A stretch of 53,116 bases of DNA from the NCBI GenBank assembly GCA_001004005.1, contig LCQF01000023.1, forward strand, positions 1-53,116, in the 5' to 3' direction. The translations under genes and the position numbers were made by a program. This document shows positions 6,020 through 45,095 of this stretch, one piece after another (position 1 is the stretch's first letter; the number at the start of each line of letters is the position of its first letter). This DNA comes from Parcubacteria group bacterium GW2011_GWA2_49_9. Its GTDB lineage: Bacteria > Patescibacteriota > Minisyncoccia > Phycocordibacterales > UBA10002. Under the pieces are notes generated by a model that had not been told where the DNA came from, made no database searches, and saw nothing but the letters and a program-made list of their open reading frames with translations.

Positions 6020-6408
6020 CCCGTAGTGAAATTTCAGGTCGTTCGCCGAGGCGGACTATTCCGAGATTTCGGTTAAAACAAGAACGAGGTTTTTAATAAT
6101 AAGATGGTGTATACACTTTTTCTATAAACCTGGAATTCTACTACGGGATTCATACCAATATACACAGTCTTAGTAATCTTACATTATTTTTTATATAAGA
6201 AAGATATTATTAAAGAGGGTGTGGATACGTGGATAAGGGGTAAAAAGAGGTATGTAACAACGGGTTTTTGATTCGGTATACACATACGTTTGGGTAAAAA
6301 GGGTGAACACTGTATTTTTATTTTCCTTCGCTATTGTTTTATCAACTTTTTGTACACACAGTACTAGTCTCTTTCCACACCTTTTTCCACAGGATAGCGC
6401 GATGTGAA
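6020..6408. other. Candidate oriC module (dnaA-dnaN intergenic): DnaA-box cluster plus AT-rich stretch
   Basis: tgtggatac (6220-6228) and gtggataag (6229-6237). R2-like boxes atatacaca (6158-6166) and gtatacaca (6276-6284). tttccaca (6372-6379) and ttttccaca (6383-6391). AT-rich tract 6180-6215. Confidence 0.6.
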
Positions 6409-13033: not shown

Positions 13034-13156
13034 CCTCCTTTCCTAAAGGAGGTGCCGAGGTCTTCCGAGGCGGAGGATTTAAACACCCCCCCTAGCCCCC
13101 TTTATTAAGGGGGATAAATCCCTCCCCCTAACGGGTACTCCCTTTATGAAAGGGAG
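13034..13156. repeat. GC-rich two-hairpin repeat units (3 hairpin-1 copies)
   Basis: ctcctttcctaaaggag, ccccctttattaaggggg, ctccctttatgaaagggag, and the variable stem ccgaggtcttccgaggcgg. Confidence 0.75.
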
Positions 13157-14292: not shown

Positions 14293-14413
14293 TATCTCCC
14301 TTACCAAAGGGAGCACTGCGTTCTGACGCAGGAGGGTTGTCTGCCACCGTTTGGGCGAGAGGGGAAACAACCCCCGCCGTATCAGAATACGGCACCCCCT
14401 TTGCTAAGGGGGA
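14293..14413. repeat. GC-rich two-hairpin repeat units (one forward, one reverse)
   Basis: tatctcccttaccaaagggagcactgcgttctgacgcaggagggttgt ... aacaacccccgccgtatcagaatacggcaccccctttgctaagggggat. Confidence 0.75.
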
Positions 14414-19997: not shown

Positions 19998-21857
19998 TTA
20001 CTGCAAGGGTTCGCGGTACGGGTCAGTTGAGTAACGCTTTTCTTCCCTCGGAAGCGACATAGGAGCCTGTAGTTTTTGGTCAAGGAAATCCTCTTCCTCT
20101 TCCCCGTTCATTTGAGGGGAGTCCGCCGGCTGGCGGAGAGGTGGGGTATTTGATTCGCTCTGCGGTCGGGTTTTATCCCCATCCCCATCCCCCTTAGCAA
20201 AGGGGGCTGCCTTGGGGGGTTGTCTGGTAAAGGGGGTGCTCCCGTCTGCGGGAGCGGGGGTTGTAATACCCCTCCTGCCGGAGACGGCAGTGCTCCCCTT
20301 ATTAGGGGAGATAGCCTTCCCTTCGGGGGGTGGAATGTTTGGAATTGCCGGCTCAAGTTTATTAATCGGATATTTCGGAAGAGGCGAAGACGACGACCCG
20401 ATAGTGTTTATGGAAGGCTTCCATCCGGTAGGCCCTATGGGGGAAGCTTTTGACTGATAGCCTTTAGCTGTTAGAGAAGAGCTTGGGAGAGTGGGGGCTG
20501 CGATTCTCGGCACAGGGACGATACCTTTAGGATTTTCAATATCCCGAAGTACGTCCGCTCGGCTTAAGGGTTCTTCTTCTCCCCCTCCCCTATCCCCCTT
20601 ACCAAAGGGGGTGCCTCCGTCCGCGGAGGCGGGGGTTGTTTTTCCCATACCAAAGGGGGTGCCAGACAACCCTCCTGCCGAAGACGGCAGTGCTCCCTTT
20701 AGTAAGGGAGATGCGGCGAGACCGGGGGTTGTCCCCACTTGTTTTTTCAGGATATTCTCCCCCATATTCCACTTCGCTCCGGCGGAGTACGGAGTAGAAG
20801 AAGCTGATAGTGGAATAGTCGTAGACTGCTTATAGCTTTTAGCTTCTAGTTTATTCTGACTAGAACCTAAAACCTGAAACCTAGCACCTGTTTCTGGGCT
20901 AGAACCTTGAACCTGAAAGCTAGAAGCTGGCTTCGGCACCACGCTCGGTTTCGGAATTGAAAATGAAGTTCCCGCTTCCAGCCGTGGACCAACTCCTACC
21001 GGAGGAGGCTGCACCACTTCCGCATGCATGCTGCGGAGCGATTCGCGCACCTTCACGAGAATCTGCGAACTCACATCGCGGGCGATTTCTCTCGCTCGCT
21101 CCTCGGGAACGCGGAGGCGGTCGGCAAGGTTCTTGATGAAGTCGGCAGGGTGCGTGAGTCCGAGGAGGACAAGCCCCGTCTCGCTCGCGAGCGCGGCCAT
21201 CTGGTCCACGTGCAAGAGGTACTTCTTGGCGATGGCTTGAATGGCATTCGCGGTATCTACCGAAGAAACCGATTGACGGAGGCCCATCGGCAGGTCTTCA
21301 AACGCATTCCGGAGTTCTTCCTCCGAGTACTTTGTTCCCGCGGCGATACGAATAAGCGCCCGTATGTGATTAGGTTCTAGCTTCAAGCTGTTAGCTTCTA
21401 GTTTATTCTGACTAGAGCCTTGAACCTGAAACCTAGCACCTGTCTCTTGGCTAGAACCTGAAACCTGAAAGCTAGAAGCTGGTTTTATCGGCTCCGGCAC
21501 TCTACCCTCTTTAATCGGATACCCCGCCTGTTTCAAAATCGGAAGAACCGGGTCAAATAGTTTCGTTTGGAGTTCGTAGGCAATCGTGGGGATTTTCGGC
21601 ACATTGTCTTCCTCAATGTTTTTGTCTTGTTGTATGAACGCGACGAGCGTATCCGGTGAGGCCTCCCCTTTCAGAACACGAAGTACTCCTTCACAGAGCG
21701 CTCCGGTTTCAGCGAAGACAAACCCCTGTTCGGCGGCAATAGTCGTTGGGAGAATATGTATTTCCGCCACCCCTTTATCAAGGAGCGCGCTGAATACTTT
21801 CTCCGGAAGCGATTCCAGAAAGAGTGATAGTCTTTCTCTTGCGTCTTGAGGATTCAT
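19998..21857 (-). CDS. Hypothetical protein: ~300-aa structured N-terminal part plus a long tail built largely from repeat-element insertions
   Basis: The ORF stays open through two ~90-bp CTAGAAS modules and many GC-rich units (peptides PLLKGALPSSAGG, GTPFGKGD, APFAKGDGDGD). Ends ...DPYREPLQ. Confidence 0.6.
   Translation of the reverse strand: MNPQDARERLSLFLESLPEKVFSALLDKGVAEIHILPTTIAAEQGFVFAETGALCEGVLRVLKGEASPDTLVAFIQQDKNIEEDNVPKIPTIAYELQTKLFDPVLPILKQAGYPIKEGRVPEPIKPASSFQVSGSSQETGARFQVQGSSQNKLEANSLKLEPNHIRALIRIAAGTKYSEEELRNAFEDLPMGLRQSVSSVDTANAIQAIAKKYLLHVDQMAALASETGLVLLGLTHPADFIKNLADRLRVPEERAREIARDVSSQILVKVRESLRSMHAEVVQPPPVGVGPRLEAGTSFSIPKPSVVPKPASSFQVQGSSPETGARFQVLGSSQNKLEAKSYKQSTTIPLSASSTPYSAGAKWNMGENILKKQVGTTPGLAASPLLKGALPSSAGGLSGTPFGMGKTTPASADGGTPFGKGDRGGGEEEPLSRADVLRDIENPKGIVPVPRIAAPTLPSSSLTAKGYQSKASPIGPTGWKPSINTIGSSSSPLPKYPINKLEPAIPNIPPPEGKAISPNKGSTAVSGRRGITTPAPADGSTPFTRQPPKAAPFAKGDGDGDKTRPQSESNTPPLRQPADSPQMNGEEEEDFLDQKLQAPMSLPREEKRYSTDPYREPLQ
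20841..20930. repeat. ~90-bp CTAGAAS module with AGCTTCTAG/CTAGAAGCT termini (copy 1, in-frame in ORF)
   Basis: Near-identical to 21393-21482 by eye. Encodes PASSFQVQGSSPETGARFQVLGSSQNKLEA. Confidence 0.75.
21393..21482. repeat. ~90-bp CTAGAAS module (copy 2, in-frame in ORF)
   Basis: Same termini and same internal order as 20841-20930. Encodes PASSFQVSGSSQETGARFQVQGSSQNKLEA. Confidence 0.75.
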
Positions 21858-26400: not shown

Positions 26401-26625
26401 TTGTCTTAATCCCCCTTAGCAAAGGGGGTGGCCGAGTCCGCGAGGCCGGGGGTTGTTCTTATTCTCCTAGTCTACGACTACAAGCTTTAGTAAAGGGGGT
26501 GCCCGAGTCGGCGAGGGCGGGGGTTGTTTTTTATCTCCCTCATTACCACACCCCTCCTGCCGAAGACGGCACAGTCTGCGACTATTCCAGTGCTCCCCTT
26601 ACTAGGGGAGATGGGGAGAAGTAAG
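26401..26625. repeat. GC-rich two-hairpin repeat array with an embedded TAGTCTACGACTA module
   Basis: atcccccttagcaaagggggtggccgagtccgcgaggccgggggttgt; ctagtctacgactac; tagtaaagggggtgcccgagtcggcgagggcgggggttgt; cctcctgccgaagacggca; ctccccttactaggggag. Confidence 0.8.
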
Positions 26626-26655: not shown

Positions 26656-29307
26656 TCATTGTACCGTGAACTCGGCCGTTGTCGTCCCGACCACTTTTTC
26701 TGTGGCTGTCCCCGCGTCGGTAACCGCGTTAATAACAATCTTGAACGGAAGGTTAGTCGTTGGCGTTCCCTTCACCATCAGCTGTATCGGACGGGTATTT
26801 CGCAGTACCAAGTCCTCCGCGAACAGAAGCTCGGCCAGAGGCTCGGCAGGCGTGGCGTTTAGCGTGGCGTTCAGAGCACGCGCGTCGGCGGTGTAGTCTA
26901 TGCCCTTTTCCGCATCAAACTCAATCATCGTCTCGGCTTTGGACGTGCCGTCAATAGCATAGGTAAAGGTGAGACTGCTAAAGTTACTGAAGAAATCGGT
27001 AGGCGTTTTGTCATACGGCGTCTTGGTGCCTTCTATGTCATTGCAAGCGGTAAACTGTTGTGTGCACCTAAAATACCTCGCGAGGAAGGAAACCTTGTCC
27101 TGCGCCTTATTCGGGAGGAAGGAAATGTTATCCCACGTGAAGGTGTCTCCTTCATATCCGATGGTTAAGGCTGTACTTCTTGCCGTCCAGTCACGTGGCT
27201 GGCTCATAGTTTTCTGCGCGGGAGATACGGTGAACGAGAACGGTACAACCTGTGTCGGAGTGTTGCCCGACGTATCTAAACGCGTCGCCTTGCCGATAAC
27301 CTCCACTTCGGCGATGGCAAGAGTCATTGATGCAGGGTCCCCTGTTTGGGAAATTCTAAGGAAACGTCCTTTGACTGTAGGTGCGGGAAGGGGGACTTTG
27401 AAAACGGATTCCAGTACTCGTCCCCTGTATAGGACGAGAGGGGTTCCACTATCGGCGACAAGCGTTACTTCCACGTTTCCGTCTCGGAGCGAATTGCGAT
27501 ACTCCGATTGAGTCGCATCCCCCCTTGCCCAGTCTCCACTAAGGCGGTATATATTTATTTCGCGTATTTCATTGACAATCCACTCTCTCTTTTTCGTCAC
27601 CCTCTCTGTCTCTAAATCAACCTCCCACCACTCGGATGTGCCCGCTTTGGTACAGGAAAAAGTGCCATAATGGATGCTTCCCGATGACGGATTTCCATCC
27701 ACGGCTTGTTGTGGGAACGAATCAACGGACCTTACTGCTGGCATCCCGCACTCTCCTTGCGATTGTGTGGCAAATTTCCCGGTTGAAATATTTCCTTCAC
27801 TACTTTGAGGTTGAGGCGGTGGCGGCGCACCTGCCCCGGGCGTTACCGGTGTCCCATCGCCCAACACCCCGCGCCCGCCCGCGGCGGCATCGTCAATCAG
27901 CTTATTCCACGCGTTTGCGCACCCCGCCTTGACTGCGGCGAAATAGGCATTCCACGTCGTAAAACCGTCTCTCGTCACGGGAACAAGGTCAGCCACGCCG
28001 ACTTTTCTGTACATTGCCGGCACAAACGGGCTGGTATCTCCCTTAACAACACCAGCCGTTTTACCCACACCAAGGTTGTCCGTCCATACCTGCATACTTG
28101 TCCAGTTTGGGGGAGCGGGTATGCTGTCGTCCGGCTCATAAAATCCGCTTTTTTCAGGCTTTTCTACGGTCGCCGGATAATACCGCAGATGGCAGTCAAT
28201 TCCCTCTGGAGTCTTGGCGTCAACGGCGCCGACTCCCTTAGTCGGGTCGGTGAAAAGCGCGTCTGTGGCACTCTGTCCGCTGTCCGTAATGCTCCCTTTG
28301 CTCGCGCCGAGAAGTCCGCCAACACCGGTCATTGCCTTCACCAAAAGCTGGTTAATGAGTGCGCCGACCACCTCGTCAATCTCGCTCGCGAGTTCCAATT
28401 CGTGGAAGGTGGTGGCGAGTGCGCCGGTCGTCTGGCCTTCAATAATGCTTCCGGGAGTTTTAATCGGACCTTCTTTGATGCAGGGGCCTTTTCGTATCAC
28501 CTTGTTATTTGCGCCTTTGATATCCGGCCCCCACTTTTCACAGCTCCGCCACGATTTGAATCCTTTTCCCCAATCCAAAAGCTTGATTTGTTGGCCGGTC
28601 GCCGTCGTAATACTCGCGCTCATAATACTCGTTGCTCCGATGTAGGCCCCGTATGGATTGTTTGATTGTGTACCGGCGATATGCACCCACCTACTCAAGT
28701 TTCCCGAGCCTACGGTACCCGACACGAAGCTATCATACGCGCCCTGCACGTTGGCAATGACGTCCGAAAGACGGCAGGTAACCGTCTCTCGGGTACGGAG
28801 CGACATATTGAGGCCGAGCGCGAATTTGATGTTGAGCTTAAACGGAGCGCACAAAAGCGGGGAAATGTCCTGAATGATTTTGCCGATAGTCTGGTCGGCG
28901 ACATCCGAGAAGAATCCTTCGGGGTTGGTGATAAATGAGGGCGAGCCTTCAAACCCGGTGTTAATCCAGTTGACGATTGATTGCGTGAAGGTATGTAAAA
29001 GGGTCTTCGCGATAATCTTCGTCAGCGACTTCATAAAACAAGCCGACCACTCGTTGCTTGCCGCCGAACCCGCACCCTGCGTATTAATGATATTACCGCC
29101 CGCGCTGTTCGTACCCACTGATATAACTGCGTTGACTGCGTTGGCAGTTGTCCCGATGCCCGTTGTTACGGCTTTCGCCGAGAAACATTGCGCAAGCGAA
29201 ACCAACGCTTCAGCTTTTTCGGGACGCGCGAAAAGAAGCGCAGGTATAACTAGCGTTATAGCCAAAAACCCGAGGAGCATCTTTTTAGTCGCCTCTCTCA
29301 CGTCCAC
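26656..29307 (-). CDS. Large secreted/surface protein with an F5/8 type C (discoidin)-like domain
   Basis: N-terminal TM/signal. Central segment AVDGNPSSG...TSEWWEVDLETE...INIYRLSG...GRFLRISQ...LAIAEVEVIGK matches the discoidin/fucolectin-like pattern. First gene of the T4SS-like block. Confidence 0.65.
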   Translation of the reverse strand: MDVREATKKMLLGFLAITLVIPALLFARPEKAEALVSLAQCFSAKAVTTGIGTTANAVNAVISVGTNSAGGNIINTQGAGSAASNEWSACFMKSLTKIIAKTLLHTFTQSIVNWINTGFEGSPSFITNPEGFFSDVADQTIGKIIQDISPLLCAPFKLNIKFALGLNMSLRTRETVTCRLSDVIANVQGAYDSFVSGTVGSGNLSRWVHIAGTQSNNPYGAYIGATSIMSASITTATGQQIKLLDWGKGFKSWRSCEKWGPDIKGANNKVIRKGPCIKEGPIKTPGSIIEGQTTGALATTFHELELASEIDEVVGALINQLLVKAMTGVGGLLGASKGSITDSGQSATDALFTDPTKGVGAVDAKTPEGIDCHLRYYPATVEKPEKSGFYEPDDSIPAPPNWTSMQVWTDNLGVGKTAGVVKGDTSPFVPAMYRKVGVADLVPVTRDGFTTWNAYFAAVKAGCANAWNKLIDDAAAGGRGVLGDGTPVTPGAGAPPPPQPQSSEGNISTGKFATQSQGECGMPAVRSVDSFPQQAVDGNPSSGSIHYGTFSCTKAGTSEWWEVDLETERVTKKREWIVNEIREINIYRLSGDWARGDATQSEYRNSLRDGNVEVTLVADSGTPLVLYRGRVLESVFKVPLPAPTVKGRFLRISQTGDPASMTLAIAEVEVIGKATRLDTSGNTPTQVVPFSFTVSPAQKTMSQPRDWTARSTALTIGYEGDTFTWDNISFLPNKAQDKVSFLARYFRCTQQFTACNDIEGTKTPYDKTPTDFFSNFSSLTFTYAIDGTSKAETMIEFDAEKGIDYTADARALNATLNATPAEPLAELLFAEDLVLRNTRPIQLMVKGTPTTNLPFKIVINAVTDAGTATEKVVGTTTAEFTVQ

Positions 29308-29368
29308 GTTAGTATAGCAGAGGAATGGGGATAATCGGTGGAAAAACAGTGGATAGTGCTTTCTTTTT

Positions 29369-29770
29369 TATCTCCCTTACTAAAGGGAGTCACGAATTCT
29401 GATTCGGGGAGGGTTGTTATCCCCCTTAGTAAAGTGAAATAGTCGTAGACTAGGGGTGACCAGCCGTAGTTTGCGGCAAACTACGGCTGGTCGGGGGTTG
29501 TTTACACCCCTCCTCCGACGTGACGTCGGAGTGCTCCCTTTGCTAAGGGAGATTCGGCGGAGGCGGGTGTTGTATCTCCCTTACTAAATGGAGTCCCCGA
29601 GTCTGCGAGGGGGAGGGTTGTTATCCCCCTAGTCTACAGTCTACGACTGCAGGCTGACTACTTCGTTACAAAGGGGGTGACCAGCCGTAGTTTGCGGCAA
29701 ACTACGGCTGGTCGGGGGTTGTATCTCCCTTAGAAAAGGGAGTACCGCCGTCTTCGGTGGGGAGGGTTGT
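29369..29770. repeat. Tandem array of ~7 GC-rich two-hairpin units (mostly forward orientation)
   Basis: Constant parts are tatc[ct]cccttaNtaaaggg[ag]g and gg[ga]gggttgt. They alternate with variable palindromic stems (cacgaattctgattcgg; accagccgtagtttgcggcaaactacggctggt, seen twice; ccccgagtctgcgagggg; accgccgtcttcggtgg). Confidence 0.85.
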
Positions 29771-30118
29771 TCTTTTCTTTATCCACAACTCAATCTCTCG
29801 CAACACACTGTCCAAATTATTTCTTACCTCGCCTTCCGTAAACCGAAGAACAGTAACCCCCAGCTTTTCCAATAGTTGTTGTCGCCTTACGTCCTTTTCA
29901 ATTTTTGCATCATGCGTTATGCCATCTATTTCAATAGCAAGGTTGAGCGGGGCGCAATAAAAATCAACGATATAAGATAGAATCGGCTTTTGCCGCGAGA
30001 ACGGATAGCCAATCTTTTTACCCTTTAGTTCTTTCCACAGCAAGACCTCTCCGAGAGTGCCATTTTTTCGGAGGCCTTGAGATAATTTCTTGAGCTCTTG
30101 GTTGTAGTATATTTTCAT
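29702..30118 (-). CDS. DUF559 (Vsr-like) endonuclease-domain protein
   Basis: LWKELKGKKIGYPFSRQKPILSYIVDFYCAPLNLAIEIDGITHD...LGVTVLRFTEGEV. The C-terminal tail TEDGGTPFSKGDTTPDQP is read from repeat units. Confidence 0.8.
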   Translation of the reverse strand: MKIYYNQELKKLSQGLRKNGTLGEVLLWKELKGKKIGYPFSRQKPILSYIVDFYCAPLNLAIEIDGITHDAKIEKDVRRQQLLEKLGVTVLRFTEGEVRNNLDSVLREIELWIKKRTTLPTEDGGTPFSKGDTTPDQP

Positions 30119-30122
30119 AGGG

Positions 30123-30379
30123 TTATCTCCCCTAGTAAGGGGAGCACTGCCGTCTTCGGCAGGAGGGGTGTGGCAAAGGGAGAGGTTAAGACAACCCCCG
30201 CCGTATCAGAATACGGCACCCCCTTTATTAAGGGGGATACAACCCCCGACCAGCCGTAGTTTGCGGCAAACTACGGCTGGGCAACCCCTTTTCTAAGGGA
30301 GATACAACCCCCCCTCGCCGACGAGAGCACCTCATTTGCTGAACAACCCCCCAAGGCAGCCCCCTTTGTTAAGGGGGAT
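30123..30379. repeat. Array of GC-rich two-hairpin units (mostly reverse orientation), mirror of 29369-29770
   Basis: acaacccccgccgtatcagaatacggcaccccctttattaagggggat; acaacccccgaccagccgtagtttgcggcaaactacggctgggcaaccccttttctaagggagat; acaaccccccaaggcagcccccttt gttaagggggat. Confidence 0.85.
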
Positions 30380-30394
30380 AACCGCCATCGCACT

Positions 30395-31237
30395 TTACTG
30401 CGTCAGTATGTACCCCGCTTCCCCTTTCGCAAACAGTATGTTCTTCATCACAAGGTAATCTGAAATATCAGTAAAGGCGCGTACCAACTTTTCCACCGCG
30501 GCGGGATACGCGGTAGCGGTTGAGAGTGTTTGCACCGGGTCAGTCATAGCCTCGTAGCGCTTTATTCTGTCATCAAGATTGGCAAGGTCTATCCCATCCT
30601 CGTTCTCCAACGCGCGCTCAAAGATGATAAGTTCGCTCTCCCCGCCTTCTTTATGGGCGATAACGACGGCGCCTACGGCGTTCCCATACGCCCAGAGCGA
30701 GACATCGGTATCTTCGTCGGCAAAGACGAGCTCACTCTCGGTATATACCTTACTCGGCTTCGCCTCGGGATAACGCTGGATAAAGTCCTCAAGAAGTTTT
30801 TGCTCTTCTTCCGCGGTAAACGGCTGGCCGGACTGTTTGAGTGCCAGATATTTGGCGAACAATTCTCGGGAAAGGCGGTCGGTTTCGGTCCAATCACCCC
30901 CGCCCGGAACGATTTTTTGTTCAATCGTGCCTTTATCCAGCTCGTCTTCCGGCCCCTCCTTGGTAGGATTTCGGCCAAGCTTTATCTCTTCCCCATCTGT
31001 TGTGGTATCGCCATCGGTATCGGGATTGAGGACATCGGTATGCCACAGTTCTTCCTCCCAATCTTTCAAACCATCGTTATCTTGGTCGCGCGAAAGGACG
31101 GCCACCGCTTTTGAAGCCTGTTCGGGGGTCACGCGGCTGAATGTAATTTCCGAACGGCCGCTGTACATAAACCAAACACCGCCCCCGATAAGGGCGAGGA
31201 GGATGATGCCGATACTAATTTTTGTGCGGAAGGTCAT
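30395..31237 (-). CDS. Membrane-anchored protein with a thrombospondin-type-3-like Ca-binding repeat
   Basis: Start MTFRTKISIGIILLALIGGGVWF. DQDNDGLKDWEEELWHTDVLNPDTDGDTTTDGEE. Paralogue of 31391..32425. Confidence 0.65.
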   Translation of the reverse strand: MTFRTKISIGIILLALIGGGVWFMYSGRSEITFSRVTPEQASKAVAVLSRDQDNDGLKDWEEELWHTDVLNPDTDGDTTTDGEEIKLGRNPTKEGPEDELDKGTIEQKIVPGGGDWTETDRLSRELFAKYLALKQSGQPFTAEEEQKLLEDFIQRYPEAKPSKVYTESELVFADEDTDVSLWAYGNAVGAVVIAHKEGGESELIIFERALENEDGIDLANLDDRIKRYEAMTDPVQTLSTATAYPAAVEKLVRAFTDISDYLVMKNILFAKGEAGYILTQ

Positions 31238-31390
31238 AGTTTTTCTGATTCTCCCTTTCTTAAAGGGAGCACTTGAGTCTTCGAAAGGAGGGATTTTTCT
31301 AAATCCTCCGCCTCGCCGACTCGGCACCTCCTTAGTCTACGACTACAGGTTAACAGGAGGAATTAAGACCAGTATACCAAATTCTTCTCC

Positions 31391-32425
31391 TTACCGCGGA
31401 AACGAGAAAATACTTCCCGGTTCGCCTTGGCTGAAGCCCACACCTTCGTTGTATAAGAAGTCGGAAACGGCCACAAACGCCTTGGCAAGGGCAAGAGAAC
31501 TCTCACTGTACTCGGTTATATCGGGACCGGAAAGATAAGCTCCTGCTTTTGTGCCCGAAATAGTCTGAATACTTCTCGCGTAATTTTGATAGGCACGAAC
31601 AAGTGCCGAATGTACCGAAGAAGCCTTTTCTGGCGACACCACCGCCGCAATGTCCAGAGCAATCTGGTCGTACTTTTTCGCGAGTTTTCCGAAGCCTTGA
31701 AGTAGAGCCTCGGTCATTTTCGTATTTCCCGACGCACTGTTCCAAAAAGCAAGCTCGGCGTCCGAGTCGGTCGCGGCCGTTTGTATGGGGGCACCGAGCG
31801 CGTTCCCGAAACTATGCAGAGGATTTTCAGCCTGTGCCTGTTCCCTCCCCTCCGTTTCTAAGGAGGGGACTTGAGGGGTGGTGGTGTCCCCCTTAGAAAA
31901 GGGGGTGCCTCCGTCTGCGGAGGCGGGGGTTGTAGGAGTTGTAGTTTCTTGTGTTAAAAGGGGAACAACCCTCCCCGCCGAAGACGGCGGTACTCCCTTT
32001 AGTAAGGGAGTAACAACCCCCGTCCTCGCCGACTCGGACACCCCCTTTTCTAAGGGGGATTGCAGAACCATTACGGGAGTTTCCAGAGAATCATTCGGTC
32101 CTCCCTTTCTCGGATTTCTATGTGCCACCACTTCCGCTCCATCCGGCGTTCCGTCGCTGTCGGTGTCGGGTTTTTCGGGGTCCGTACCCCAAAGGGCTTC
32201 TTCCCAATCCGGAAGTCCATCGCTGTCTATGTCAAACGTGGAAAACGCTGGTTGTATCCCCCTTAGTAAAGTGGAATAGTCGTAGACTAGGGGTGCCGTA
32301 TTCCGATACGGCGGGGGTTGTTCGGTTCGACTCTTTGACAAAAACCAAATACCGAGTGCGACAAGAAAAAGGATTCCAATGAGAAGCATAACCTCGGTTA
32401 TGAGAGTACCGATAGATTTTTTCAT
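31391..32425 (-). CDS. Membrane-anchored TSP3-like repeat protein (paralogue) carrying ~70 aa of in-frame repeat-unit insertion
   Basis: DIDSDGLPDWEEALWGTDPEKPDTDSDGTPDGAE. Inserted segment PLEKGVSESARTGVVTPLLKGVPPSSAGRVVPLL...ASADGGTPFSKGD. Confidence 0.65.
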   Translation of the reverse strand: MKKSIGTLITEVMLLIGILFLVALGIWFLSKSRTEQPPPYRNTAPLVYDYSTLLRGIQPAFSTFDIDSDGLPDWEEALWGTDPEKPDTDSDGTPDGAEVVAHRNPRKGGPNDSLETPVMVLQSPLEKGVSESARTGVVTPLLKGVPPSSAGRVVPLLTQETTTPTTPASADGGTPFSKGDTTTPQVPSLETEGREQAQAENPLHSFGNALGAPIQTAATDSDAELAFWNSASGNTKMTEALLQGFGKLAKKYDQIALDIAAVVSPEKASSVHSALVRAYQNYARSIQTISGTKAGAYLSGPDITEYSESSLALAKAFVAVSDFLYNEGVGFSQGEPGSIFSFPR

Positions 32426-33004: not shown

Positions 33005-33892
33005 CTACGAATAAGAAAGAAACAAGAAGAGGTGTTTCCAATCCGCGAGAGACAGATTTTCCGGACGCGCTTTCTCCGCGATGTTGCACTCTTTGAGCGT
33101 TGCGGAAGTAACCCCTACATTTGACGCGAGAAGTTTCCTCGGATGAGCGAATCCTTTTTTGAGGAAAGCAAAGAACTCCTGTTCGTTCATTCTCCCTTTC
33201 CTAAAGGGAGTACCGCCTTCCGAGGCGGGGAGGGATTTAAATCCTCCGGCCTCGCCGACTCGGCCACCTCCTTTTGCAAAGGAGGAATAAGAGTCGGTGC
33301 CCGTAAAAAATTCTTTTGAGATATGCTCAATCGCGATAATCGCGGAATCCACGTTCGGTGGCGGAGAAAAGGCTCCCGCCTTTACGGTACCGATATACTT
33401 CGGCGTCCCGTAGGCTTTGACACTTATGGAGAGAATGCTTTCTTTTTTATCGCTGGCGACTATTCTCCGTGCCACTTCTTTTTGTAAGAGCAGGACCATT
33501 GTGTGTGGCGGACACTCTGTCCCTTGGAGAAATTTCCGCAAAAATTGTCCCGTAATGTAATACGGCAAATTCGCCACGATTTTGTAGGGCTTCTTTGAAA
33601 ATTGAAAATTGAAAATTGAAAATTCCAATATGTCGGCATGGATGAGCTCAAACTCTCCTGAAGCGATTTCGGCTGCAAACTTCTGTTCCAACACGGGAAT
33701 AAGCCGGTCGTCTTTTTCAACCGCGATGACTTTTCCCGCTTGCTTGAGCAGTAATTCCGTAAGGACTCCCTCCCCCGGGCCTACCTCAAGCACGGTGTCG
33801 GCAGGCAGAAGCTGTGCCGCCCCCACTATTTTCTGGAGCGCGCCTGCGGAGCGAAGAAAATGTTGACCGAGCGTTTTTTTAGCAAAAACCAT
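33005..33892 (-). CDS. rsmA: 16S rRNA (adenine1518/1519-N6)-dimethyltransferase RsmA/KsgA, with two in-frame repeat insertions
   Basis: KKTLGQHFL, VLEVGPGEGVLT, KIVANLPYYIT. Insertions are gaaaatt x4 (33597-33624) and GC-rich units (33191-33285, SFAKGGGRVGEAGGFKSLPASEGGTPFRKG). Confidence 0.88.
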   Translation of the reverse strand: MVFAKKTLGQHFLRSAGALQKIVGAAQLLPADTVLEVGPGEGVLTELLLKQAGKVIAVEKDDRLIPVLEQKFAAEIASGEFELIHADILEFSIFNFQFSKKPYKIVANLPYYITGQFLRKFLQGTECPPHTMVLLLQKEVARRIVASDKKESILSISVKAYGTPKYIGTVKAGAFSPPPNVDSAIIAIEHISKEFFTGTDSYSSFAKGGGRVGEAGGFKSLPASEGGTPFRKGRMNEQEFFAFLKKGFAHPRKLLASNVGVTSATLKECNIAEKARPENLSLADWKHLFLFLSYS

Positions 33893-33993: not shown

Positions 33994-36123
33994 TTAATCA
34001 AAAAAGATTATCTTCCCTCCCCCTTCCAGGTAATTTTCAGCCTGCAGGAATTCTTCGTCAATGTCAAAGATGAATTCCGACGGCACCGTTACTTGTCGTG
34101 AGCCGAAAATGGTTCGGACCCCGGCGTATGTCAGGAAGACTTTCTTCTTTGCTCTGGTGACTGCCACATAAAACAGGCGGCGCTCCTCCTCGGCCGCCCC
34201 TTCGTCAAGCGTTTCTCCCATACGTTCGTGCGGGAACAGCCCTTCTTCAAGGCCGGAAATAAATACATAGGTAAATTCAAGTCCTTTTGACGCATGCACC
34301 GTCATAAGCCGTACCGCGGGTTTCTCCTCTTGGAGCTCGTCCTGGTCGCTCTGAAGCGCTACGTCGGAAAGGAATTGATCTACTGCCGCAGTTCTGTCAT
34401 TCCCCTGCTCCCGCCCCTCTCCCTTTCGGGAGCTCCCCTCAAGCAGGGGAGCTGGGGAATCCAGTTCTTTTTGAGTCCCACTCTGGCCCCCCGCATAGTC
34501 TACGACTACTCCGCTCTGCTCCGTCGCGAGGATGACAGACGGCGTGGTTTCAGGGGTCACTGCGTCGTACCTCGTCGCGAAGGTTACGAGTTCCTTGATA
34601 TTTTCCAGACGTTCCTCGTCTTCCGAACCTCCTTTTTTGAGCTCCGCCTCAAGTCCGCTCGCGCTCACAATCCACTTAATAGCCTCCGAAAGCGGCAGAC
34701 TGGAAAGTCTTTGGCGGAATTCCGCTAGCAGTTTTTTAAACGTAGCAAGTTTTTCGCGCATGGCGGGCGGAAGCTCCTTTTCTTTCCCCGCAAAGATTTT
34801 GAGAAGCGTCACCTTGCCAATACCACGCGGAGGAACGTTGATAATCCGTCGCACGTCACCGATACTCTCGGGGTTTTCAGCGGCACGGACATAGGAAAGG
34901 ACATCTTTCACCTCTCTGCGTTCAAAAAAGCGCACTCCAAGAACCTGATACGGCACTTCCTCTCGGAGAAAAGCTTCTTCAAGCGCGCGGCTTTGGAAGT
35001 TCGCCCTGAACAGGACGGCAATAGCGGAGGGGGATGCGCCCTCGGCGATAAGCTGTTTGGAACGCTGTGCGATAAAGGAGGCTTCCTGCACTTCGTCATA
35101 GGCGGTAAACAGTCCCACCTTCTCCCCCTCCCCGTTTTTCGTGAAGAGCGTCTTCTCTCTCCGCATTTTATTTTTCTCAATAATGCGGTTTGCTACCGTG
35201 AGAATGGTCTGGGTAGAGCGGTAATTTTCTTCAAGCAGTACTATCTTTGACTTCGGATAGTCCTTTTCAAAATTCAGAATGTTTTTGATACTCGCTCCCC
35301 GCCAGCTGTAGATGTTCTGGTCAATGTCGCCGACTACCGCGATATTCTTCTCCGCGTCGGCAAGCGATTTCGCGATGATGTATTGCACGTGATTCGTGTC
35401 CTGATACTCGTCAATATGGATATAGCGCCAGCGTTTCTGATAGTGCGCACGCACCATCTCATCTTTCTGCAATAAGACGGCCGTTTTTAACAAAAGGTCG
35501 TCAAAATCAAGCGCCTTTTCTTTGCGGAGAATCGCCTCATACTTTTCCCAGATATCCGCGACTATCGCCGGATAGTAGTCTCCTTCGGAGCGCGCCTTAA
35601 ACTCTTCGCAGGTCACCATCTTCCCTTTCTCACGGCTAATTGACCCGAGAATTTTCCCCGGCTCAAACTGTTTCGGGTCAAGGTCCGTTTCCCTAATCGC
35701 CTCTTTGAGGGCACGTATAGAATCACTACGGTCAAAAATAGTAAACCGTTTGGAAAGACCGAGCCGCTGGCTGTTTTCTCGCAGAATATATACGCCAAGC
35801 GAGTGAAACGTACCGAGCCAAGGGAAGCTGATAGCTTTTAGGTTCTGACTTCTAGGATGTTCCATTCCCTCGGTTTGGCCTAGAAGCTGAAAGCTAGAAC
35901 CTAAAAGCTGGCGGACTCTCTCGCGCATCTCCTTCGCCGCTTTATTCGTAAAAGTGATGGCAAGTATTGACTCTGGAGCGACCCCCTGCTTAATGAGGTG
36001 AAGAATTCGGTGCGTGATTACCCGTGTCTTGCCCGCTCCCGCTCCGGCGACAATAAGAAGGGGGCCCTCGGTATGCTCCACGGCTTCCCGTTGCCGCGCA
36101 TTGAGTCCGAGAAGATAGTCCAT
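33994..36123 (-). CDS. pcrA: UvrD/PcrA-family ATP-dependent DNA helicase, with in-frame repeat insertions
   Basis: Start MDYLLGLNARQREAV. Walker A AGAGAGKTRV. DEYQDTN. VHASKGLEF. Insertions at 35827-35912 (CTAGAAS hairpin) and ~34397-34515 (MITE half-copy plus TAGTCTACGACTA). Confidence 0.9.
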   Translation of the reverse strand: MDYLLGLNARQREAVEHTEGPLLIVAGAGAGKTRVITHRILHLIKQGVAPESILAITFTNKAAKEMRERVRQLLGSSFQLLGQTEGMEHPRSQNLKAISFPWLGTFHSLGVYILRENSQRLGLSKRFTIFDRSDSIRALKEAIRETDLDPKQFEPGKILGSISREKGKMVTCEEFKARSEGDYYPAIVADIWEKYEAILRKEKALDFDDLLLKTAVLLQKDEMVRAHYQKRWRYIHIDEYQDTNHVQYIIAKSLADAEKNIAVVGDIDQNIYSWRGASIKNILNFEKDYPKSKIVLLEENYRSTQTILTVANRIIEKNKMRREKTLFTKNGEGEKVGLFTAYDEVQEASFIAQRSKQLIAEGASPSAIAVLFRANFQSRALEEAFLREEVPYQVLGVRFFERREVKDVLSYVRAAENPESIGDVRRIINVPPRGIGKVTLLKIFAGKEKELPPAMREKLATFKKLLAEFRQRLSSLPLSEAIKWIVSASGLEAELKKGGSEDEERLENIKELVTFATRYDAVTPETTPSVILATEQSGVVVDYAGGQSGTQKELDSPAPLLEGSSRKGEGREQGNDRTAAVDQFLSDVALQSDQDELQEEKPAVRLMTVHASKGLEFTYVFISGLEEGLFPHERMGETLDEGAAEEERRLFYVAVTRAKKKVFLTYAGVRTIFGSRQVTVPSEFIFDIDEEFLQAENYLEGGGKIIFFD

Positions 36124-36220
36124 AGTTGCACCACTATAACAGAAAGAAAAATCCGAAGCACGAACTTGTGAAAAGCACGAAGCACGAAGCACGAAATCCT
36201 AAAGAATTAACATTTCTTAA

Positions 36221-37705: not shown

Positions 37706-37775
37706 CCTCACATGCCCCCCTCCCCCTTTCTAAGGGGGAGAATTGAAGAGGGGGTTGTGACTCTCAATGGAGCAG

Positions 37776-37796
37776 ACCGCGGAAACGCGGTTTTTT
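37776..37796 (+). terminator. Rho-independent terminator after the M23 gene
   Basis: accgcg-gaaa-cgcggt followed by TTTTTT. Confidence 0.75.
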
Positions 37797-38049
37797 CGTT
37801 CTCGCTCTTCCTCCCCTCCTCAGTTGAGGTGAGAAGCGAATACGTGAAGCTTCGCAAGACCTTGAGCGCTCCGTCTTCGGAGAGAGCGAAAGGTGTATAG
37901 TTTCTGTAAGAAAGGGAATTAAAAGGGGTGGTGGTGTTATCCCCCTTAGTAAAGGGGGTGCCGCATTCGATGTGGCGGGGGTTGTTTCTTTTTCTTTCAA
38001 GGCGCTACGCAGTCCTATATACAGAGGACTTACGCATTTCGTGCGTTTT

Positions 38050-38155
38050 TGTCATTCCAGCGACGGAGCAGTAGCGGAGTAGTCGTAGACTAAGCTGGAA
38101 TCCAGTATAGGGCTGTTTTTTAGGCTCTGGATTCCACTTTTCAGTGGAATGACAC
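38050..38155. mobile_element. MITE-like element, TGTCATYCC family (copy C), with an embedded TAGTCGTAGACTA module
   Basis: tgtcattccagcgacgg...gtagtcgtagactaagctggaatccag...ctctggattccacttttcagtggaatgacac. The right flank resembles the right flank of copy A. Confidence 0.55.
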
Positions 38156-38176
38156 TGATTGCGTATGTCCTAATAC

Positions 38177-38206
38177 AAAAAACCGAGGTCTGCACCAGCG
38201 CAGACC
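38177..38206 (-). terminator. Rho-independent terminator (minus strand) after the small basic ORF
   Basis: ggtctgc-N6-gcagacc followed on the minus strand by tcggTTTTTT. Confidence 0.65.
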
Positions 38207-38230
38207 CCATAACACATTTCGACAGTCGCT

Positions 38231-38623
38231 TCACTCCCCTACGCGAGTGAACCAACCCCTCCTCCCCGCTCTCCCGAGGCTATCTAGCATACAGCCGATT
38301 TTCTTTCGGACCGTTTTTACTAGTTCACCATTTTCGTGAGAAGCGTTTCGGCATTGCCACCGTTCGTCAACGCGTAATTCCTTTCCCCCTTTTTTTGTTC
38401 GGGGTGGAGTGTAATCAAGGCGGTCAACGCGGAGCCTGCGTTTATTATGCACGACGCGGAAATGACAGTGTTTTTCTTTAGTTGGGGCAGAAGTGCGTTT
38501 GGTCCCGAACGGAATTTCTCGGAAGACAAACAGTTCTCTGCCGACGCGGAAACTTTTGCCGTCCAGTTTGCCTACAGTGCACCCGAACACGCCGATTCTA
38601 ATTTCAGTTTTTTTGTTCTTCAC
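38231..38623 (-). CDS. Small, very basic protein of unknown function
   Basis: Strong SD AAGGAGG 5 nt before an in-frame GTG at 38623. 130 aa. Terminator downstream. No family recognised. Confidence 0.45.
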   Translation of the reverse strand: MKNKKTEIRIGVFGCTVGKLDGKSFRVGRELFVFREIPFGTKRTSAPTKEKHCHFRVVHNKRRLRVDRLDYTPPRTKKGGKELRVDERWQCRNASHENGELVKTVRKKIGCMLDSLGRAGRRGWFTRVGE

Positions 38624-38745
38624 CGACTCCTCCTTGGTTGGTTGTGAGCTGTTGTTTGCAAGTAGCATACTCCTTTTTTCCGATATGCAAACCGGAAGGC
38701 ACGACTTTTCGCAAGAAACTTGACATACAATCAATTGCCGCGGCC

Positions 38746-39443
38746 CTAAAAGCTGTGGCGATTTTCTTTGTAAATGCGAAAACCTATTTTACTTGAGGGG
38801 GTTGTTGGAGGGGTAAGTAGTCTTTTGATGGCATCAAACACGATTTTAAACTGCTGGTCGTATTTATTTTCCATTTTCTCAATTTTTATGCGCAGTTCTC
38901 GGTTAGAGGCGATAAGTTCTCGGAGCTTGGTGAAAGTTCTAATGATTTGGATGTTAACCTGAACCGCTCGCTTGCTGTTCAGGACACTTGAAAGCATCGC
39001 GACGCCTTGCTCGGTGAAGGCATAAGGTAGTTTTCTTCGCCCACCATAACTTGAAGTCGCAATTTGCGACTTCAAGTTATGTCTATTCAAGGTCGCAATT
39101 TGCGACCTTGAAAAAGCATCTGATTCAAATTTAGTAAGAGCCTATCCACTATCTAATGCCTAGGCGAAATGTTCAAAATTCGTTGCGAAAATTGAGGATT
39201 TTGAGGAAGCATATCGAGATATGCTGACGAAATGCGGTTAGATAGTGGATAGGCTCTAAGTTGAAACATAAAATCAATCGGAAATCTTTCGCTGTTTCTT
39301 CGCACAGCTTCATTGAGCCTTCGCGTCTCCACTCCATATAATTCCGCCAAGTCGCGGTCCAACATGACTTTCTTCCCACGGATAAAAAATATCTTGCTCT
39401 CTATCTTGTCTGGTATCACAGTCAGCATTTGTATGCGATTCAT
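38746..39443 (-). pseudogene. ORF6N-domain (KilA-N/Rha-like) protein gene split by a 120-bp MITE
   Basis: N-part is ...IFFIRGKKVMLDRDLAELYGVETRRLNEAVRRNSERFPIDFMFQL. C-part is ...SQIATSSYGGRRKLPYAFTEQGVAMLSSVLNSKRAVQVNIQIIRTF. Deleting 122 bp restores one frame. Confidence 0.85.
39137..39256. mobile_element. 120-bp MITE with ~19-20-bp terminal inverted repeats and a putative TA target duplication
   Basis: agagcctatccactatctaa (39137-39156) pairs with ttagatagtggataggctc(t) (39238-39257). TA at 39135-39136 and at 39257-39258. Confidence 0.75.
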
Positions 39444-39479
39444 TTTCTTTTCTGTAAGCTAACAGCTAGAACCTAAAAG

Positions 39480-41057
39480 CTATAAGCTATTCCCCAACTG
39501 CTTCGGCCGATACTGCAACGCTTCCATTAGGTCGCCGGTCTGTACATCGTCGTGCCCCTCAAGGTCGGCGACGGTGCGGGCAAGCTTGATAAGGCGATGG
39601 TAGGAACGGGCAGAAAGGTCGTGCTTCTTGGCGGCGAGATTGAGAGCTTGTTTAACATCATCGGAAAGAGGAATTGCGACAGCGATGTCCCGCGGGCCAA
39701 CATCACTGTTGGTTTTGAACGGCAGTTTTAATTTTTTATACCGTTCCTCGGCTCGCGCACGAGCGACCGATACTTTTTTGCGTACCGCTTCACTTGTTTC
39801 TTCACTTCCCCGCCCCTCGGTGAGCTTCTCATGCTCTACGATGGACACTTCGGTCCACAAGTCAATGCGGTCTACAATCGGGCCGGAAATTTTTCGCTTG
39901 TAGCGGTCAATCTGGTGCTGTCCGCAACTGCACACTTTTCCTTTCACCCCGTTATTCCCGCAGGGACAGGGATTCATGGCGGTAATCAATGTGAAATGCG
40001 CGGGAAATTGCGCCGAACCTTTGACGCGAGCGACGGAAACAACACGGTCTTCAAGCGGTTGGCGGAGTGCGTCAATCACCCTTCGTTCAAATTCGGGAAA
40101 TTCATCCAAGAAAAGCACTCCTCGGTGCGCGAGGGTGATTTCTCCCGGCTTGGGAATGGAACCACCACCCACAAGCGCGATATATGAGGCAGTATGATGC
40201 GGCGCGCGAAATGGCGGATAGGTGATAAGAGGTTCTTGAAGTGCTCCCGCGACCGAATGAATGCCGGTCACTTCAAGAGCCTGTTCAATATCCAGCGGGG
40301 GCAATATGGAAATAAAAGCTTTGGCGAGAAGTGTCTTCCCTGTGCCCGGTGGTCCCCACATCGCGATGTTATGTCCACCCGCCGCGGCGATTTCAAGTCC
40401 GCGTTTCGCCGTTCTCTGTCCCTTCACGTCGGCAAAATCCACCTGATACTCCCGCGTTCCCACTTCAAATGTGGTTAGTGGAACCGGTTTCATTTTCCGC
40501 TTCTGAATAAACGGGCGCTCATCATCGGGGAGGATATCCTTCTCTGTAAGGTGTGCGGAGAGGTCCCAAAGATTTTTCACTCCATAGACGTCAATACCAT
40601 CAATAAGCGCCGCCTCTTTCGCGTTTTCAAGCGGGACATACACTTCTTTAAAACCGGAACGTTTCGCTTCGCGGACAATCGGCAAGACTCCATCTATTCC
40701 CTGCACCATACCGTCAAGTGAAAGTTCTCCGACAAACAATTTTCCCTTCACGTCCGCGGGAAGGCATTTGGAGGCGATTAAGTAGCCGACCGCCATCGGA
40801 AGGTCAAAGCTCGGCCCCTCTTTCTTCGTGTCCGCGGGAGCGAGCGAAATGACGATTTTGTGATTTTTCTGTTTCGGCGACTTAAATCCGGTATTTTTTA
40901 TCGCCGCGCTGATGCGGTCTTTCGCTTCTTCCACCGCTTTGTCGGGGAGGCCCACTATGGAAAACGCGTTGAGGCCCTTAGAGAGGTCAACCTCAACGCG
41001 TACCAGAGAAGTCTTCAGGAGATGGACTTGAGCGGAACTGACAGTTGCGAAACTCAT
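39480..41057 (-). CDS. comM: YifB/ComM-family Mg-chelatase-like AAA+ ATPase
   Basis: N-terminal Lon-protease-like domain, Walker A GPPGTGKTLLAKAF, Walker B VLFLDEFPEF. Start at MSFATVSSAQV. Confidence 0.88.
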   Translation of the reverse strand: MSFATVSSAQVHLLKTSLVRVEVDLSKGLNAFSIVGLPDKAVEEAKDRISAAIKNTGFKSPKQKNHKIVISLAPADTKKEGPSFDLPMAVGYLIASKCLPADVKGKLFVGELSLDGMVQGIDGVLPIVREAKRSGFKEVYVPLENAKEAALIDGIDVYGVKNLWDLSAHLTEKDILPDDERPFIQKRKMKPVPLTTFEVGTREYQVDFADVKGQRTAKRGLEIAAAGGHNIAMWGPPGTGKTLLAKAFISILPPLDIEQALEVTGIHSVAGALQEPLITYPPFRAPHHTASYIALVGGGSIPKPGEITLAHRGVLFLDEFPEFERRVIDALRQPLEDRVVSVARVKGSAQFPAHFTLITAMNPCPCGNNGVKGKVCSCGQHQIDRYKRKISGPIVDRIDLWTEVSIVEHEKLTEGRGSEETSEAVRKKVSVARARAEERYKKLKLPFKTNSDVGPRDIAVAIPLSDDVKQALNLAAKKHDLSARSYHRLIKLARTVADLEGHDDVQTGDLMEALQYRPKQLGNSL

Positions 41058-44934: not shown

Positions 44935-45095
44935 CCACGGAAGCGACACGGAAGGAAGAACACGGAAGCGACACGGAACCTTCCTATTCCCCCTTTATAA
45001 AAGGGAGCACTGCCGTCTTCGGCAGGAGGGATTTAGTTCCGATTCTGTTCCGCGTTGCTTTGGTTCTGTGTCAGTTCTGCGTATTGAGGCTGACC
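44935..45095. repeat. CACGGAA-theme inverted repeat with a GC-rich two-hairpin unit in its loop
   Basis: cacggaagcgacacggaaggaagaacacggaagcgacacggaacc ... ccccctttataaaagggagcactgccgtcttcggcaggaggg ... gttccgattctgttccgcgttgctttggttctgtg. Confidence 0.65.

Follow-up and report, generated by a model that had tools for sequence, protein, structure and literature searches.

Hairpin-expanded repeats of the intrastrand-triplex type in a Parcubacteria genome and their linkage to a DUF559 nuclease gene

The 53,116-nt stretch of contig LCQF01000023.1 from Parcubacteria group bacterium GW2011_GWA2_49_9 (hereafter the window) carries a dispersed family of short, GC-rich repeat units. Each unit consists of a pyrimidine (Y) arm, a loop and a complementary purine (R) arm, which together form hairpin 1, followed by a linker that in most window units forms a second hairpin, and a closing motif that mirrors the purine arm (R'). 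The initial annotation, made from the sequence alone, had placed the family outside every described repeat class. This has not been borne out, since the layout Y-arm/loop/R-arm/loop/mirror-R' is that of the BoxC/PIT/TM repeats. The window family is best described as a predicted hairpin-expanded variant of these known intrastrand-triplex repeats, with a different sequence. The units also bracket a gene for a DUF559 nuclease, both in the window and in loci from several phyla. We lean, without great assurance, towards a REP/RAYT-like repeat-and-nuclease system operating on DNA, in which triplex-motif units are tied to a DUF559 nuclease of putative activity. The unit family itself is real, strongly non-random and acts at the DNA level.

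The repeat unit and its mirror third strand

A rule-based detector has been used in place of a covariance model because the linker varies in length. The strict detector takes perfect pyrimidine/purine hairpins with 6 bp or more that have a perfect mirror third strand within 50 nt, so the unit counts are lower bounds, and for the source genome unit and gene counts cover the 53-kb window only. It finds 26 perfect units in the window, compared with a mean of 0.11 and a maximum of 2 in 100 dinucleotide-preserving shuffles. Besides these, there are about 12 copies with imperfections, truncations or small interrupting inserts. Hairpin-1 sites of the pattern C[CT]CCC[CT]T-N3-7-A[AG]GGG[GA]G and closing motifs of the pattern G[GA]GGGTTGT each occur 25 times. 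All of these sites, as well as the copies of a 13-mer module described below, fall at the kilobase positions given by the initial annotation. Its description of a dispersed family with tandem arrays stands. The array at 29369-29770 holds eight units of ~48 nt, seven on the + strand and one inverted, with hairpin 1 broken by inserts in two of them. Nested and truncated units are present as well, and the units are intergenic or run into the ends of mechanically called open reading frames (ORFs). In a logo of the unit flanks, AAT precedes the Y arm, and G/T followed by T stands behind the third strand.

The closing GGGGGTTGT had been taken for a constant tag, but it covaries with hairpin 1 and constitutes the third strand. 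It is the mirror of the purine arm, in which G is answered by G and A by either A or T. This rule is obeyed by 470 perfect units with 64 different purine arms, in the window and the other searched loci together, and the 458 distinct units contain 2270 G/G, 381 A/A and 643 A/T triads. The arm AAGGGGG, for example, is followed by GGGGGTT or GGGGGAT, AGAGGGG by GGGGTGT, GAGGGG by GGGGTG and AAAGGAAG by GAAGGATT. In the window, the arms CCCCCTT/AAGGGGG are followed by GGGGGTT(GT), CTCCCTT/AAGGGAG by GAGGGTT(GT), CTCCCCT/AGGGGAG by GAGGGGT(GT), CTCCCTTT/AAAGGGAG by GAGGGATT, CCTCCTTT/AAAGGAGG by GGAGGATT, and TCCCCTCC/GGAGGGGA by AGGGGTGG. In a set of DUF559 loci chosen without regard to repeats, a perfect mirror lies downstream in 185 of 376 hairpin orientations, which amounts to about 98% of the hairpins because palindromic hairpins are counted on both strands. 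The controls among the same orientations are lower, with 37 mirrors upstream, 97 direct repeats downstream and 49 direct repeats upstream.

Read from the sequence, the mirror rule is the design of an antiparallel purine-motif (class II) intrastrand DNA triplex with G.G-C, A.A-T and T.A-T triads, and the assignment of the units to the BoxC/PIT/TM class is based on this design. Seven representative units fold as single-stranded DNA into hairpins 1 and 2 with z-scores of -3.5 to -7.9, and the third strand is left free in the two-dimensional fold.

Two other roles for the closing motif have been considered and rejected. Watson-Crick pairing with the 5' arm is possible only for all-G arms or with additional Gs that stand by chance in front of the motif. 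Arms such as CTCCCCT and CCCCTCT do not allow it, whereas the mirror rule fits all 64 arm types. A G-quadruplex is disfavoured by the presence of only two G runs per unit, and the mirrored A/T positions would be needless for it. In the case of TMECO, the Escherichia coli member of the class, a quadruplex has been excluded by nuclear magnetic resonance (NMR) (PMC4666352).

The linker from the purine arm to the third strand has a bimodal length, with 3-5 nt in 208 of 471 units and 12-31 nt in most of the others. Loop 1 has a length of 3-5 nt. Loop 2 is 17-31 nt long in most window units and forms a closed hairpin (hairpin 2) with ~1 free base. Long linkers typically start with T and continue as G-stem-loop-stem-C up to the third strand; the stem begins one base past the purine arm and extends as far as the third strand. 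With DNA parameters, the mean folding energy of the 211 distinct long linkers is -4.2 kcal/mol, compared with -1.3 kcal/mol for shuffles. The earlier proposal that hairpin 2 is conserved in pairing and variable in sequence is upheld by an alignment of all 41 distinct 19-nt linkers, which were not selected for pairing. Paired cells make up 77% of this alignment against 49% in shuffles, and double-sided changes occur in 76 cells against 25. The covariation score is 0.597, compared with 0.16 in shuffles and 0.09-0.19 in controls with slid partners. None of 500 shuffles reaches the observed values, and the covariation of the stem is strong. The unpaired cells belong mostly to a recurrent ..CGAG-TCNG-CGAG.. 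type of linker, which by reading of the sequence can close by tandem G.A pairs.

The simplest reading of hairpin 2 is a self-closing insert in loop 2 of the triplex. Its pairing would return the third strand to the side of hairpin 1, and for this reason only the pairing would matter. Hairpin-bearing units are also found in Gemmatimonadales, Ignavibacteria, Balneolaceae, Bacteroidota and a gammaproteobacterial metagenome-assembled genome (MAG).

The relation to H-DNA is one of shared principles, namely purine-tract mirror symmetry and Hoogsteen triad rules. H-DNA is one long duplex mirror repeat under supercoiling. In the units, by contrast, one strand carries three short blocks and folds back twice, and the predicted structure therefore needs a single strand. 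Features of miniature inverted-repeat transposable elements (a target-site duplication and a parent insertion sequence) have not been seen; orthologous regions differ in unit number and show no clean empty/filled junction. The units are not REP/BIME, Correia, RPE or ERIC elements, as the initial annotation had stated. Nor do they match Rfam, which for the whole window returns three tRNAs only at gathering scores, and for 29300-30420, with E up to 1 allowed, only chance-level matches (E 0.13-0.58). A full-text literature search for the motif strings returned chance primer matches only.

According to Holder et al. 2015 (PMC4666352), who cite the earlier reports of BoxC and PIT, BoxC was found again as "potential intrastrand triplex" (PIT) elements and later as the TM/TMECO motifs. 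Holder et al. searched 5246 genomes and give the E. coli TMECO consensus as CCCTCNCCC-N3-6-GGGNGAGGG-N3-GGGNGAGGG. Isolated E. coli TMECO/BoxC strands form a very stable class II triplex in vitro, as observed by circular dichroism and NMR, and the motifs are intergenic, occur in both orientations and are frequently found as inverted pairs (PMC4666352). The window units share with this class the succession of a C-rich arm, a loop, a G-rich arm, a loop and a mirror G/T-rich third strand on one strand. They also share the class II triads, the multicopy and intergenic occurrence in both orientations with frequent inverted pairs, and the lack of a nearby transposase. On the other hand, the window arms (CCCCCTT/AAGGGGG and relatives) differ from the CCCTCNCCC/GGGNGAGGG arms of E. 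coli; written as C[CT]CCC(C)T(T)(T) or CCTCCTTT, they fall outside the strict BoxC/TMECO consensus. The window stems have 6-9 triads, the host belongs to the candidate phyla radiation (CPR), and the units form direct arrays of up to eight. The short loop of the class is found for loop 1 and not for loop 2, which is a self-pairing hairpin of 12-31 nt in most window units and 3 nt in E. coli. The loop limits of the published searches (PMC4666352) are 1-6 nt for the ITxF search and 0-10 nt for the earlier PIT search of Hoyne et al., and units with a hairpin in the loop would therefore be missed by both.

The DUF559 gene and its bracket of inverted units

The protein encoded between arrays A and B (Table 1) matches Pfam PF04480 at 100.5 bits (cut-off 20.6), with the invariant residues E63, D65, G66, H69, D76 and Q80. 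It also matches PDB 3HRL, an endonuclease-like structure from Neisseria gonorrhoeae (1e-26), and 3R3P, the I-Bth0305I homing endonuclease (5e-4), and it is 40% identical to E. coli YcjD. By its sequence the protein belongs to the DUF559/EDxHD PD-(D/E)XK predicted nucleases. It shares the fold family and the catalytic E-x-D ... H ... D ... Q signature with Vsr, I-Bth0305I, 3HRL and YcjD. Vsr nicks T:G mismatches at Dcm sites, and I-Bth0305I resides in a phage intron and has extra DNA-binding domains; unlike these two, the window protein is a bare 114-aa domain between predicted triplex repeats. The nearest canonical units on either side of the gene (29725-29770 and 30193-30236) are inverted relative to each other, and the third strand of each points towards the gene.

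The gene is syntenic in five related genomes and under purifying selection, with a ratio of non-synonymous to synonymous substitution rates (dN/dS) of 0.04-0.19 against four syntenic orthologues. The flanking arrays differ between the window and locus L013, where these were compared.

The linkage has been followed in both directions. A scan of one genome per species with ATCCCCCTTNNNNAAGGGGGTG gave at least 108 matching stretches, compared with about 17 expected by chance by our own estimate. The matches listed include Patescibacteria, Planctomycetota (Brocadia, Scalindua), Bacteroidota, Gemmatimonadota, Nitrospinota, Ignavibacteria, Acidobacteria and others, and a mirror third strand lies 1-35 nt past most of them. 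In the forward direction, 365 ORFs within 300 nt of units at the 108 unit-anchored genome loci listed were clustered all against all. DUF559 is the only family that recurs near units across unrelated genomes in this set. A homologue is present at nine of these loci, in several phyla, and lies within 500 nt of a unit at seven of the nine.

In the reverse direction, 80 metagenome loci were picked by DUF559 protein similarity alone, as the best 80 of 571 relatives. A + unit lies within 150 nt upstream of the DUF559 gene at 59 of 79 loci and a - unit downstream at 45 of 78, and at least one unit is found at 71 of 77. Third strand and gene are separated by a median of 28 nt on the upstream side and 20 nt on the downstream side. 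Unit density reaches 6.55 per kb in the DUF559 flanks, compared with 0.19 elsewhere and 0.93 in other non-ORF DNA, and the orientation of the units is biased on both sides (p = 6e-7 upstream, p = 5e-4 downstream). With the window protein as query, the DUF559 family as a whole comprises 19,455 cluster representatives at E<=1e-3 and 5,869 at E<=1e-10. The same inverted-unit bracket surrounds relatives of 40-51% identity on IMG/VR contigs. Carriage by phages has been rejected, as only 5 DUF559 relatives occur in 2.9 million viral contigs.

Two further loci show the arrangement in other forms. In L103 (Cyclobacteriaceae, 6150-7350) a composite repeat of ~210 nt is found in tandem, with one + and one - unit per copy, and one of the copies has the DUF559 gene in the exact place of the 52-nt spacer between the two. 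In E. coli K-12, TMECO no. 9 (Table 1 of PMC4666352) is located 168 bp from ycjD, and the ycjD stop codon falls inside a degenerate TMECO whose third-strand side points toward ycjD. In the same fabI-ycjD region, a fragment of the ycjD 3' end is duplicated between ycjD and TMECO no. 9 (L191, 2323-2370 vs 2428-2467), which suggests a past rearrangement at the locus. PMC4666352 does not mention a DUF559/YcjD link, and a paper linking DUF559 or YcjD to triplex repeats has not been found in the literature searched. The consistent bracketing of a DUF559 nuclease gene by units across phyla appears to be new.

Layout of the units and genomic context

The units of the window are listed in Table 1 with the DUF559 gene.

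Table 1. Positions of the repeat units and of the DUF559 gene in the window
Feature	Position	Strand	Description
DUF559 gene	29777..30118	-	DUF559 (Vsr/EDxHD-like PD-(D/E)XK) endonuclease, 114-aa conserved core
Array A	29369..29772	+	8 head-to-tail units
Array A unit	29372-29417	+	
Array A unit	29421-29501	+	13-mer insert in R arm, long hairpin 2
Array A unit	29504-29551	-	inverted
Array A degenerate copy	up to 29572		shares hairpin of 29504-29551 unit
Array A unit	29575-29621	+	one mismatch in hairpin 1
Array A unit	29625-29722	+	~40-nt insert in hairpin 1, long hairpin 2
Array A last unit	29725-29770	+	third strand 29762-29768 abuts 3' end of DUF559 gene
Array B	30124..30379	-	upstream of DUF559 start; 1 + unit, 4 - units
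Array B unit	30127-30171	+	
Array B unit	30193-30236	-	third strand toward DUF559 gene
Array B unit	30241-30300	-	long hairpin 2
Array B unit	30306-30342	-	degenerate hairpin 1
Array B unit	30345-30377	-	short linker
3-unit cluster	13034..13156	mixed	
Unit	13034-13081	+	arms CCTCCTTT/AAAGGAGG, third strand GGAGGATT
Unit	13085-13113	-	short linker, 1 mismatch
Unit	13117-13156	-	third strand GAGGGATT
Convergent pair	14296-14340, 14367-14412	+, -	third strands face across 26-nt spacer
Two clusters	20189..20732		inside 3' part of mechanical ORF 19998-21857
First cluster, unit	20189-20223	+	
First cluster, unit	20226-20264	+	5'-truncated
First cluster, unit	20266-20310	-	
Second cluster, unit	20594-20639	+	
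Second cluster, remnant	20640-20665		
Second cluster, unit	20666-20710	-	
Second cluster, extra third strand	20724-20732		
3-unit cluster	26411..26610	mixed	
Unit	26411-26456	+	
Unit	26462-26527	+	13-mer insert in Y arm
Unit	26548-26610	-	arms CTCCCCT/AGGGGAG, third strand GAGGGGT
Convergent pair, first unit	31251-31296	+	third strand GAGGGATT
Convergent pair, second unit	31301-31366	-	13-mer insert in hairpin 1
5-unit cluster	31846..32321	mixed	
Unit	31846-31881	+	different arms TCCCCTCC/GGAGGGGA, 4-nt linker, third strand AGGGGTGG
Unit	31888-31933	+	
Unit	31965-32010	-	
Unit	32013-32058	-	
Unit	32255-32321	+	13-mer insert in R arm
Abutting convergent pair	33192-33238, 33240-33285	+, -	junction GGAGGGATTTAAATCCTCC
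Unit	37720-37758	+	9-bp arms, 7-nt linker
Unit	37941-37985	+	
Single unit	44989-45034	+	one mismatch in hairpin 1 (CCCCCTTT/AAAGGGAG); third strand GAGGGATT matches purine arm

Several ORFs of the window traverse units and thereby acquire repeat-encoded tails, a point of importance for annotation. The DUF559 ORF continues beyond the conserved core as far as a stop at 29702, and the 24-aa tail gained in this way comes from the last unit of array A. A 619-aa ORF (19998-21857) and a 344-aa ORF (31391-32425), both called as genes on the public contig, span seven and five units, respectively. The read-through ends of such ORFs are probably not real protein sequence.

The 13-mer TAGTCTACGACTA is present in six exact copies in the window. 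The initial annotation had counted seven, which holds at up to one mismatch, and had placed it often within hairpin 1, which is the case for four of the seven, the other three being in other contexts. Inserts of the 13-mer in hairpin-1 arms fold on themselves while the arm stays continuous, and this self-folding would make them tolerated in units. The 13-mer is a module of its own and is also found inside hairpin 2 (L013, 6912). Further sites are located at 38055-38110 (-), 34470-34540 (+) and 20816-20850 (-) in the window, at 3582 in L004, and at 30 and 140 in L055. Together with the five following bases the 13-mer behaves like an 18-nt insert (TAGTCTACGACTATTYCA), and no target duplication is visible. 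A second, longer repeat that is common to several Patescibacteria genomes, ctggattcc.gc-TAGTCTACGACTA-ctccgctactgctccg.cgc.gggaatgaca, also holds the 13-mer.

Compared with the L070 orthologue, which is 70% identical, the gene for a UvrD/PcrA-type helicase (ORF 33994-36192, -) shows an in-frame insertion of ~49 aa at 34390-34560. G/C hairpins and the 13-mer give the inserted DNA a repeat-like character, and it resembles the in-frame insertions of Rickettsia palindromic elements. The window also has short direct repeats between genes at 36155-36197, 44940-44985 and 39455-39495 (cacgaagcacgaagcacgaa, ggaagcgacacggaa and agctagaacctaaaagctataagcta), which have no relation to the units, and L070 has analogous gtagaaagtag repeats at the matching positions. 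At 37706-39484 lies a 1.8-kb segment that starts with two units and to which only ~110 nt correspond in the syntenic L070. An ORF6N/KilA-N-type gene within this segment is split in two ORFs (38746-39090 and 39153-39443), and the segment is possibly an inserted or decaying island. In Brocadia and other Planctomycetota (L012, L030, L090, L095, L108), short-linker units are followed by a conserved stretch of ~50 nt (aaaaaacttgctaa...gtttttacagggtaatattataat). The appearance is that of a lineage-specific composite repeat, which may carry a promoter, and the genes downstream of the units at these loci are unrelated to each other.

The genes of the window include dnaA, dnaN, PBP1, tyrosyl-tRNA synthetase, polynucleotide phosphorylase, the UvrD-type helicase and type-IV-secretion-like genes. 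The window proteins occur on groundwater metagenome contigs from the Rifle aquifer, and the window is colinear, at 67-80% nucleotide identity, with Patescibacteria/Parcubacteria MAGs such as GW2011_GWC2_48_17. L001 and L002 represent the same genome as the window (>99.9% identity) and differ from it only by assembly gaps within genes, without repeat polymorphism. The public 47-kb contig L001 has a 114-bp stretch (2405-2518, at window position 30544/30545) and a 94-bp stretch ending in a run of N (9208-9301, at 23856/23857), both in coding sequence, and both are assembly differences. The cumulative GC skew has its minimum near 48-49 kb, by tRNA genes and at a switch of the gene strand. Since this minimum is ~41 kb from dnaA and dnaN (4919-7818), the replication origin may not be next to dnaA.

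A proposed repeat-and-nuclease system and its alternatives

The units and the DUF559 gene together recall REP/BIME/REPIN-RAYT systems, in which a population of short structured repeats forms arrays and inverted doublets. As in those systems, there is one vertically inherited enzyme gene under purifying selection, bracketed by inverted repeats, along with many orphan repeats. The enzyme here is a PD-(D/E)XK (DUF559) hydrolase and not a Y1 HUH transposase. In the system that we favour, the G-rich strand of a unit would fold into a hairpin-triplex when it becomes single-stranded, with the third strand lying antiparallel along the purine arm of hairpin 1. The DUF559 nuclease would recognise or nick the folded unit. 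Repair or copy-choice at the nicks would then duplicate units beside existing ones and between inverted pairs, giving rise to arrays and convergent pairs.

Several observations weigh against this proposal. ViennaRNA cannot model triplexes, and the triplex fold of the units is deduced from covariation only. In-vivo dimethyl sulphate (DMS) footprinting gave no sign of the TMECO triplex, with which the duplex competes (PMC4666352). The 571 DUF559 proteins from which the reverse loci were taken are relatives of proteins found beside units, and the association is that of this subfamily (36-75% identity), not of all DUF559 proteins. Proteins that share a flanking arm class are more alike than others (59.8% vs 54.4% identity, 0 of 2000 permutations), which speaks for the linkage, but host phylogeny confounds this co-variation. 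Within this clade, inheritance of the DUF559 gene looks vertical, and neither a recent insertion nor a target-site duplication nor a clean empty site has been seen. We know of no transposition chemistry for PD-(D/E)XK hydrolases, so that a spread of units by way of DUF559 would have to rely on host repair or recombination. Regulation or an insertion preference, rather than an enzyme-substrate relation, could also underlie the linkage.

A more general form of the proposal extends it to the entire class. DUF559 proteins, YcjD included, would be the partner enzymes of BoxC/PIT/TM repeats throughout bacteria, nicking the folded single-stranded hairpin-triplex and thereby generating and maintaining the repeats. 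We offer this extension only tentatively.

A different origin of the linkage is that DUF559 is a free-standing selfish nuclease of the homing type that inserts into the spacers of convergent pairs, which would serve as target and homology arms, while the units spread separately by slippage or recombination at non-B DNA. The profile match to I-Bth0305I and the exact replacement of the L103 spacer agree with such insertion, and convergent pairs without a gene between them are frequent in the window (14296-14412, 31251-31366 and 33192-33285). However, the conserved synteny in five diverged genomes and the low dN/dS are unlike the typical cycle of gain, decay and loss, relatives are scarce in viral contigs, and the arm class follows protein similarity. 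We consider homing unlikely.

The units might instead be structural DNA of the host, involved in replication pausing or in local recombination and plasticity as proposed for TMECO, with DUF559 as a structure-specific nuclease for their repair or processing and not for their multiplication. Holder et al. associate TM loci with higher local variability and report that transposases and integrases are "never found" nearby (PMC4666352). The Vsr-like DUF559 protein would be kin of a repair nickase, and its vertical inheritance under purifying selection is in keeping with a host function. This explanation accounts neither for the inward-facing bracket at most DUF559 loci across phyla nor for the direct arrays and the nested and truncated units, where local duplication seems to have taken place repeatedly. 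We regard it as rather improbable.

The GC-rich palindromes, arrays and inverted doublets would also suit REP-like elements whose movement depends on a REP-associated tyrosine transposase (RAYT) or an IS200/IS605-type tyrosine transposase from another part of the genome; the DUF559 link would then be incidental. The initial annotation had pointed to a RAYT as candidate mobilising enzyme. Instead, no Y1_Tnp domain has been detected among the 30 window ORFs scanned with Pfam, the linked gene is the DUF559 nuclease, and no transposase family recurs near units in the 108 unit-anchored loci listed. Moreover, the units lack the GTAG-type head of REPs, having the AAT and G/T-T flanks in its place, and their mirror third strand is without counterpart in REPs. 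This origin is therefore very improbable.

An RNA role of the units, for example as terminators, stabilisers or small RNAs, might be suggested by strong hairpins between genes but is hardly credible, since the orientations are about equal (15 perfect units on + and 10 on -) though nearly all window genes are on -, Rfam gives no match, and terminator-like sites are not enriched (14 vs 11.1 +/- 3.4). Moreover, RNA does not form purine-motif triplexes, and promoter or terminator activity was not found for PIT elements (PMC4666352). Intrinsic terminators in particular have been rejected, there being no enrichment and no T tract behind the hairpins.

These results bear on a long-standing question. 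Since the 1990s, hundreds of bacterial genomes have been found to carry BoxC/PIT/TM repeats, which to our knowledge have no assigned enzyme, origin or function. The units described here extend the class to CPR bacteria and many other phyla, and the class is under-counted because the variant with a hairpin in the loop escapes the published search definitions. DUF559 is a first candidate partner enzyme for the class, and the DUF559/YcjD link makes the BoxC/PIT question testable. If it is true that the nuclease reads a DNA triplex, this would be a rare natural system of protein-triplex recognition and a possible tool.

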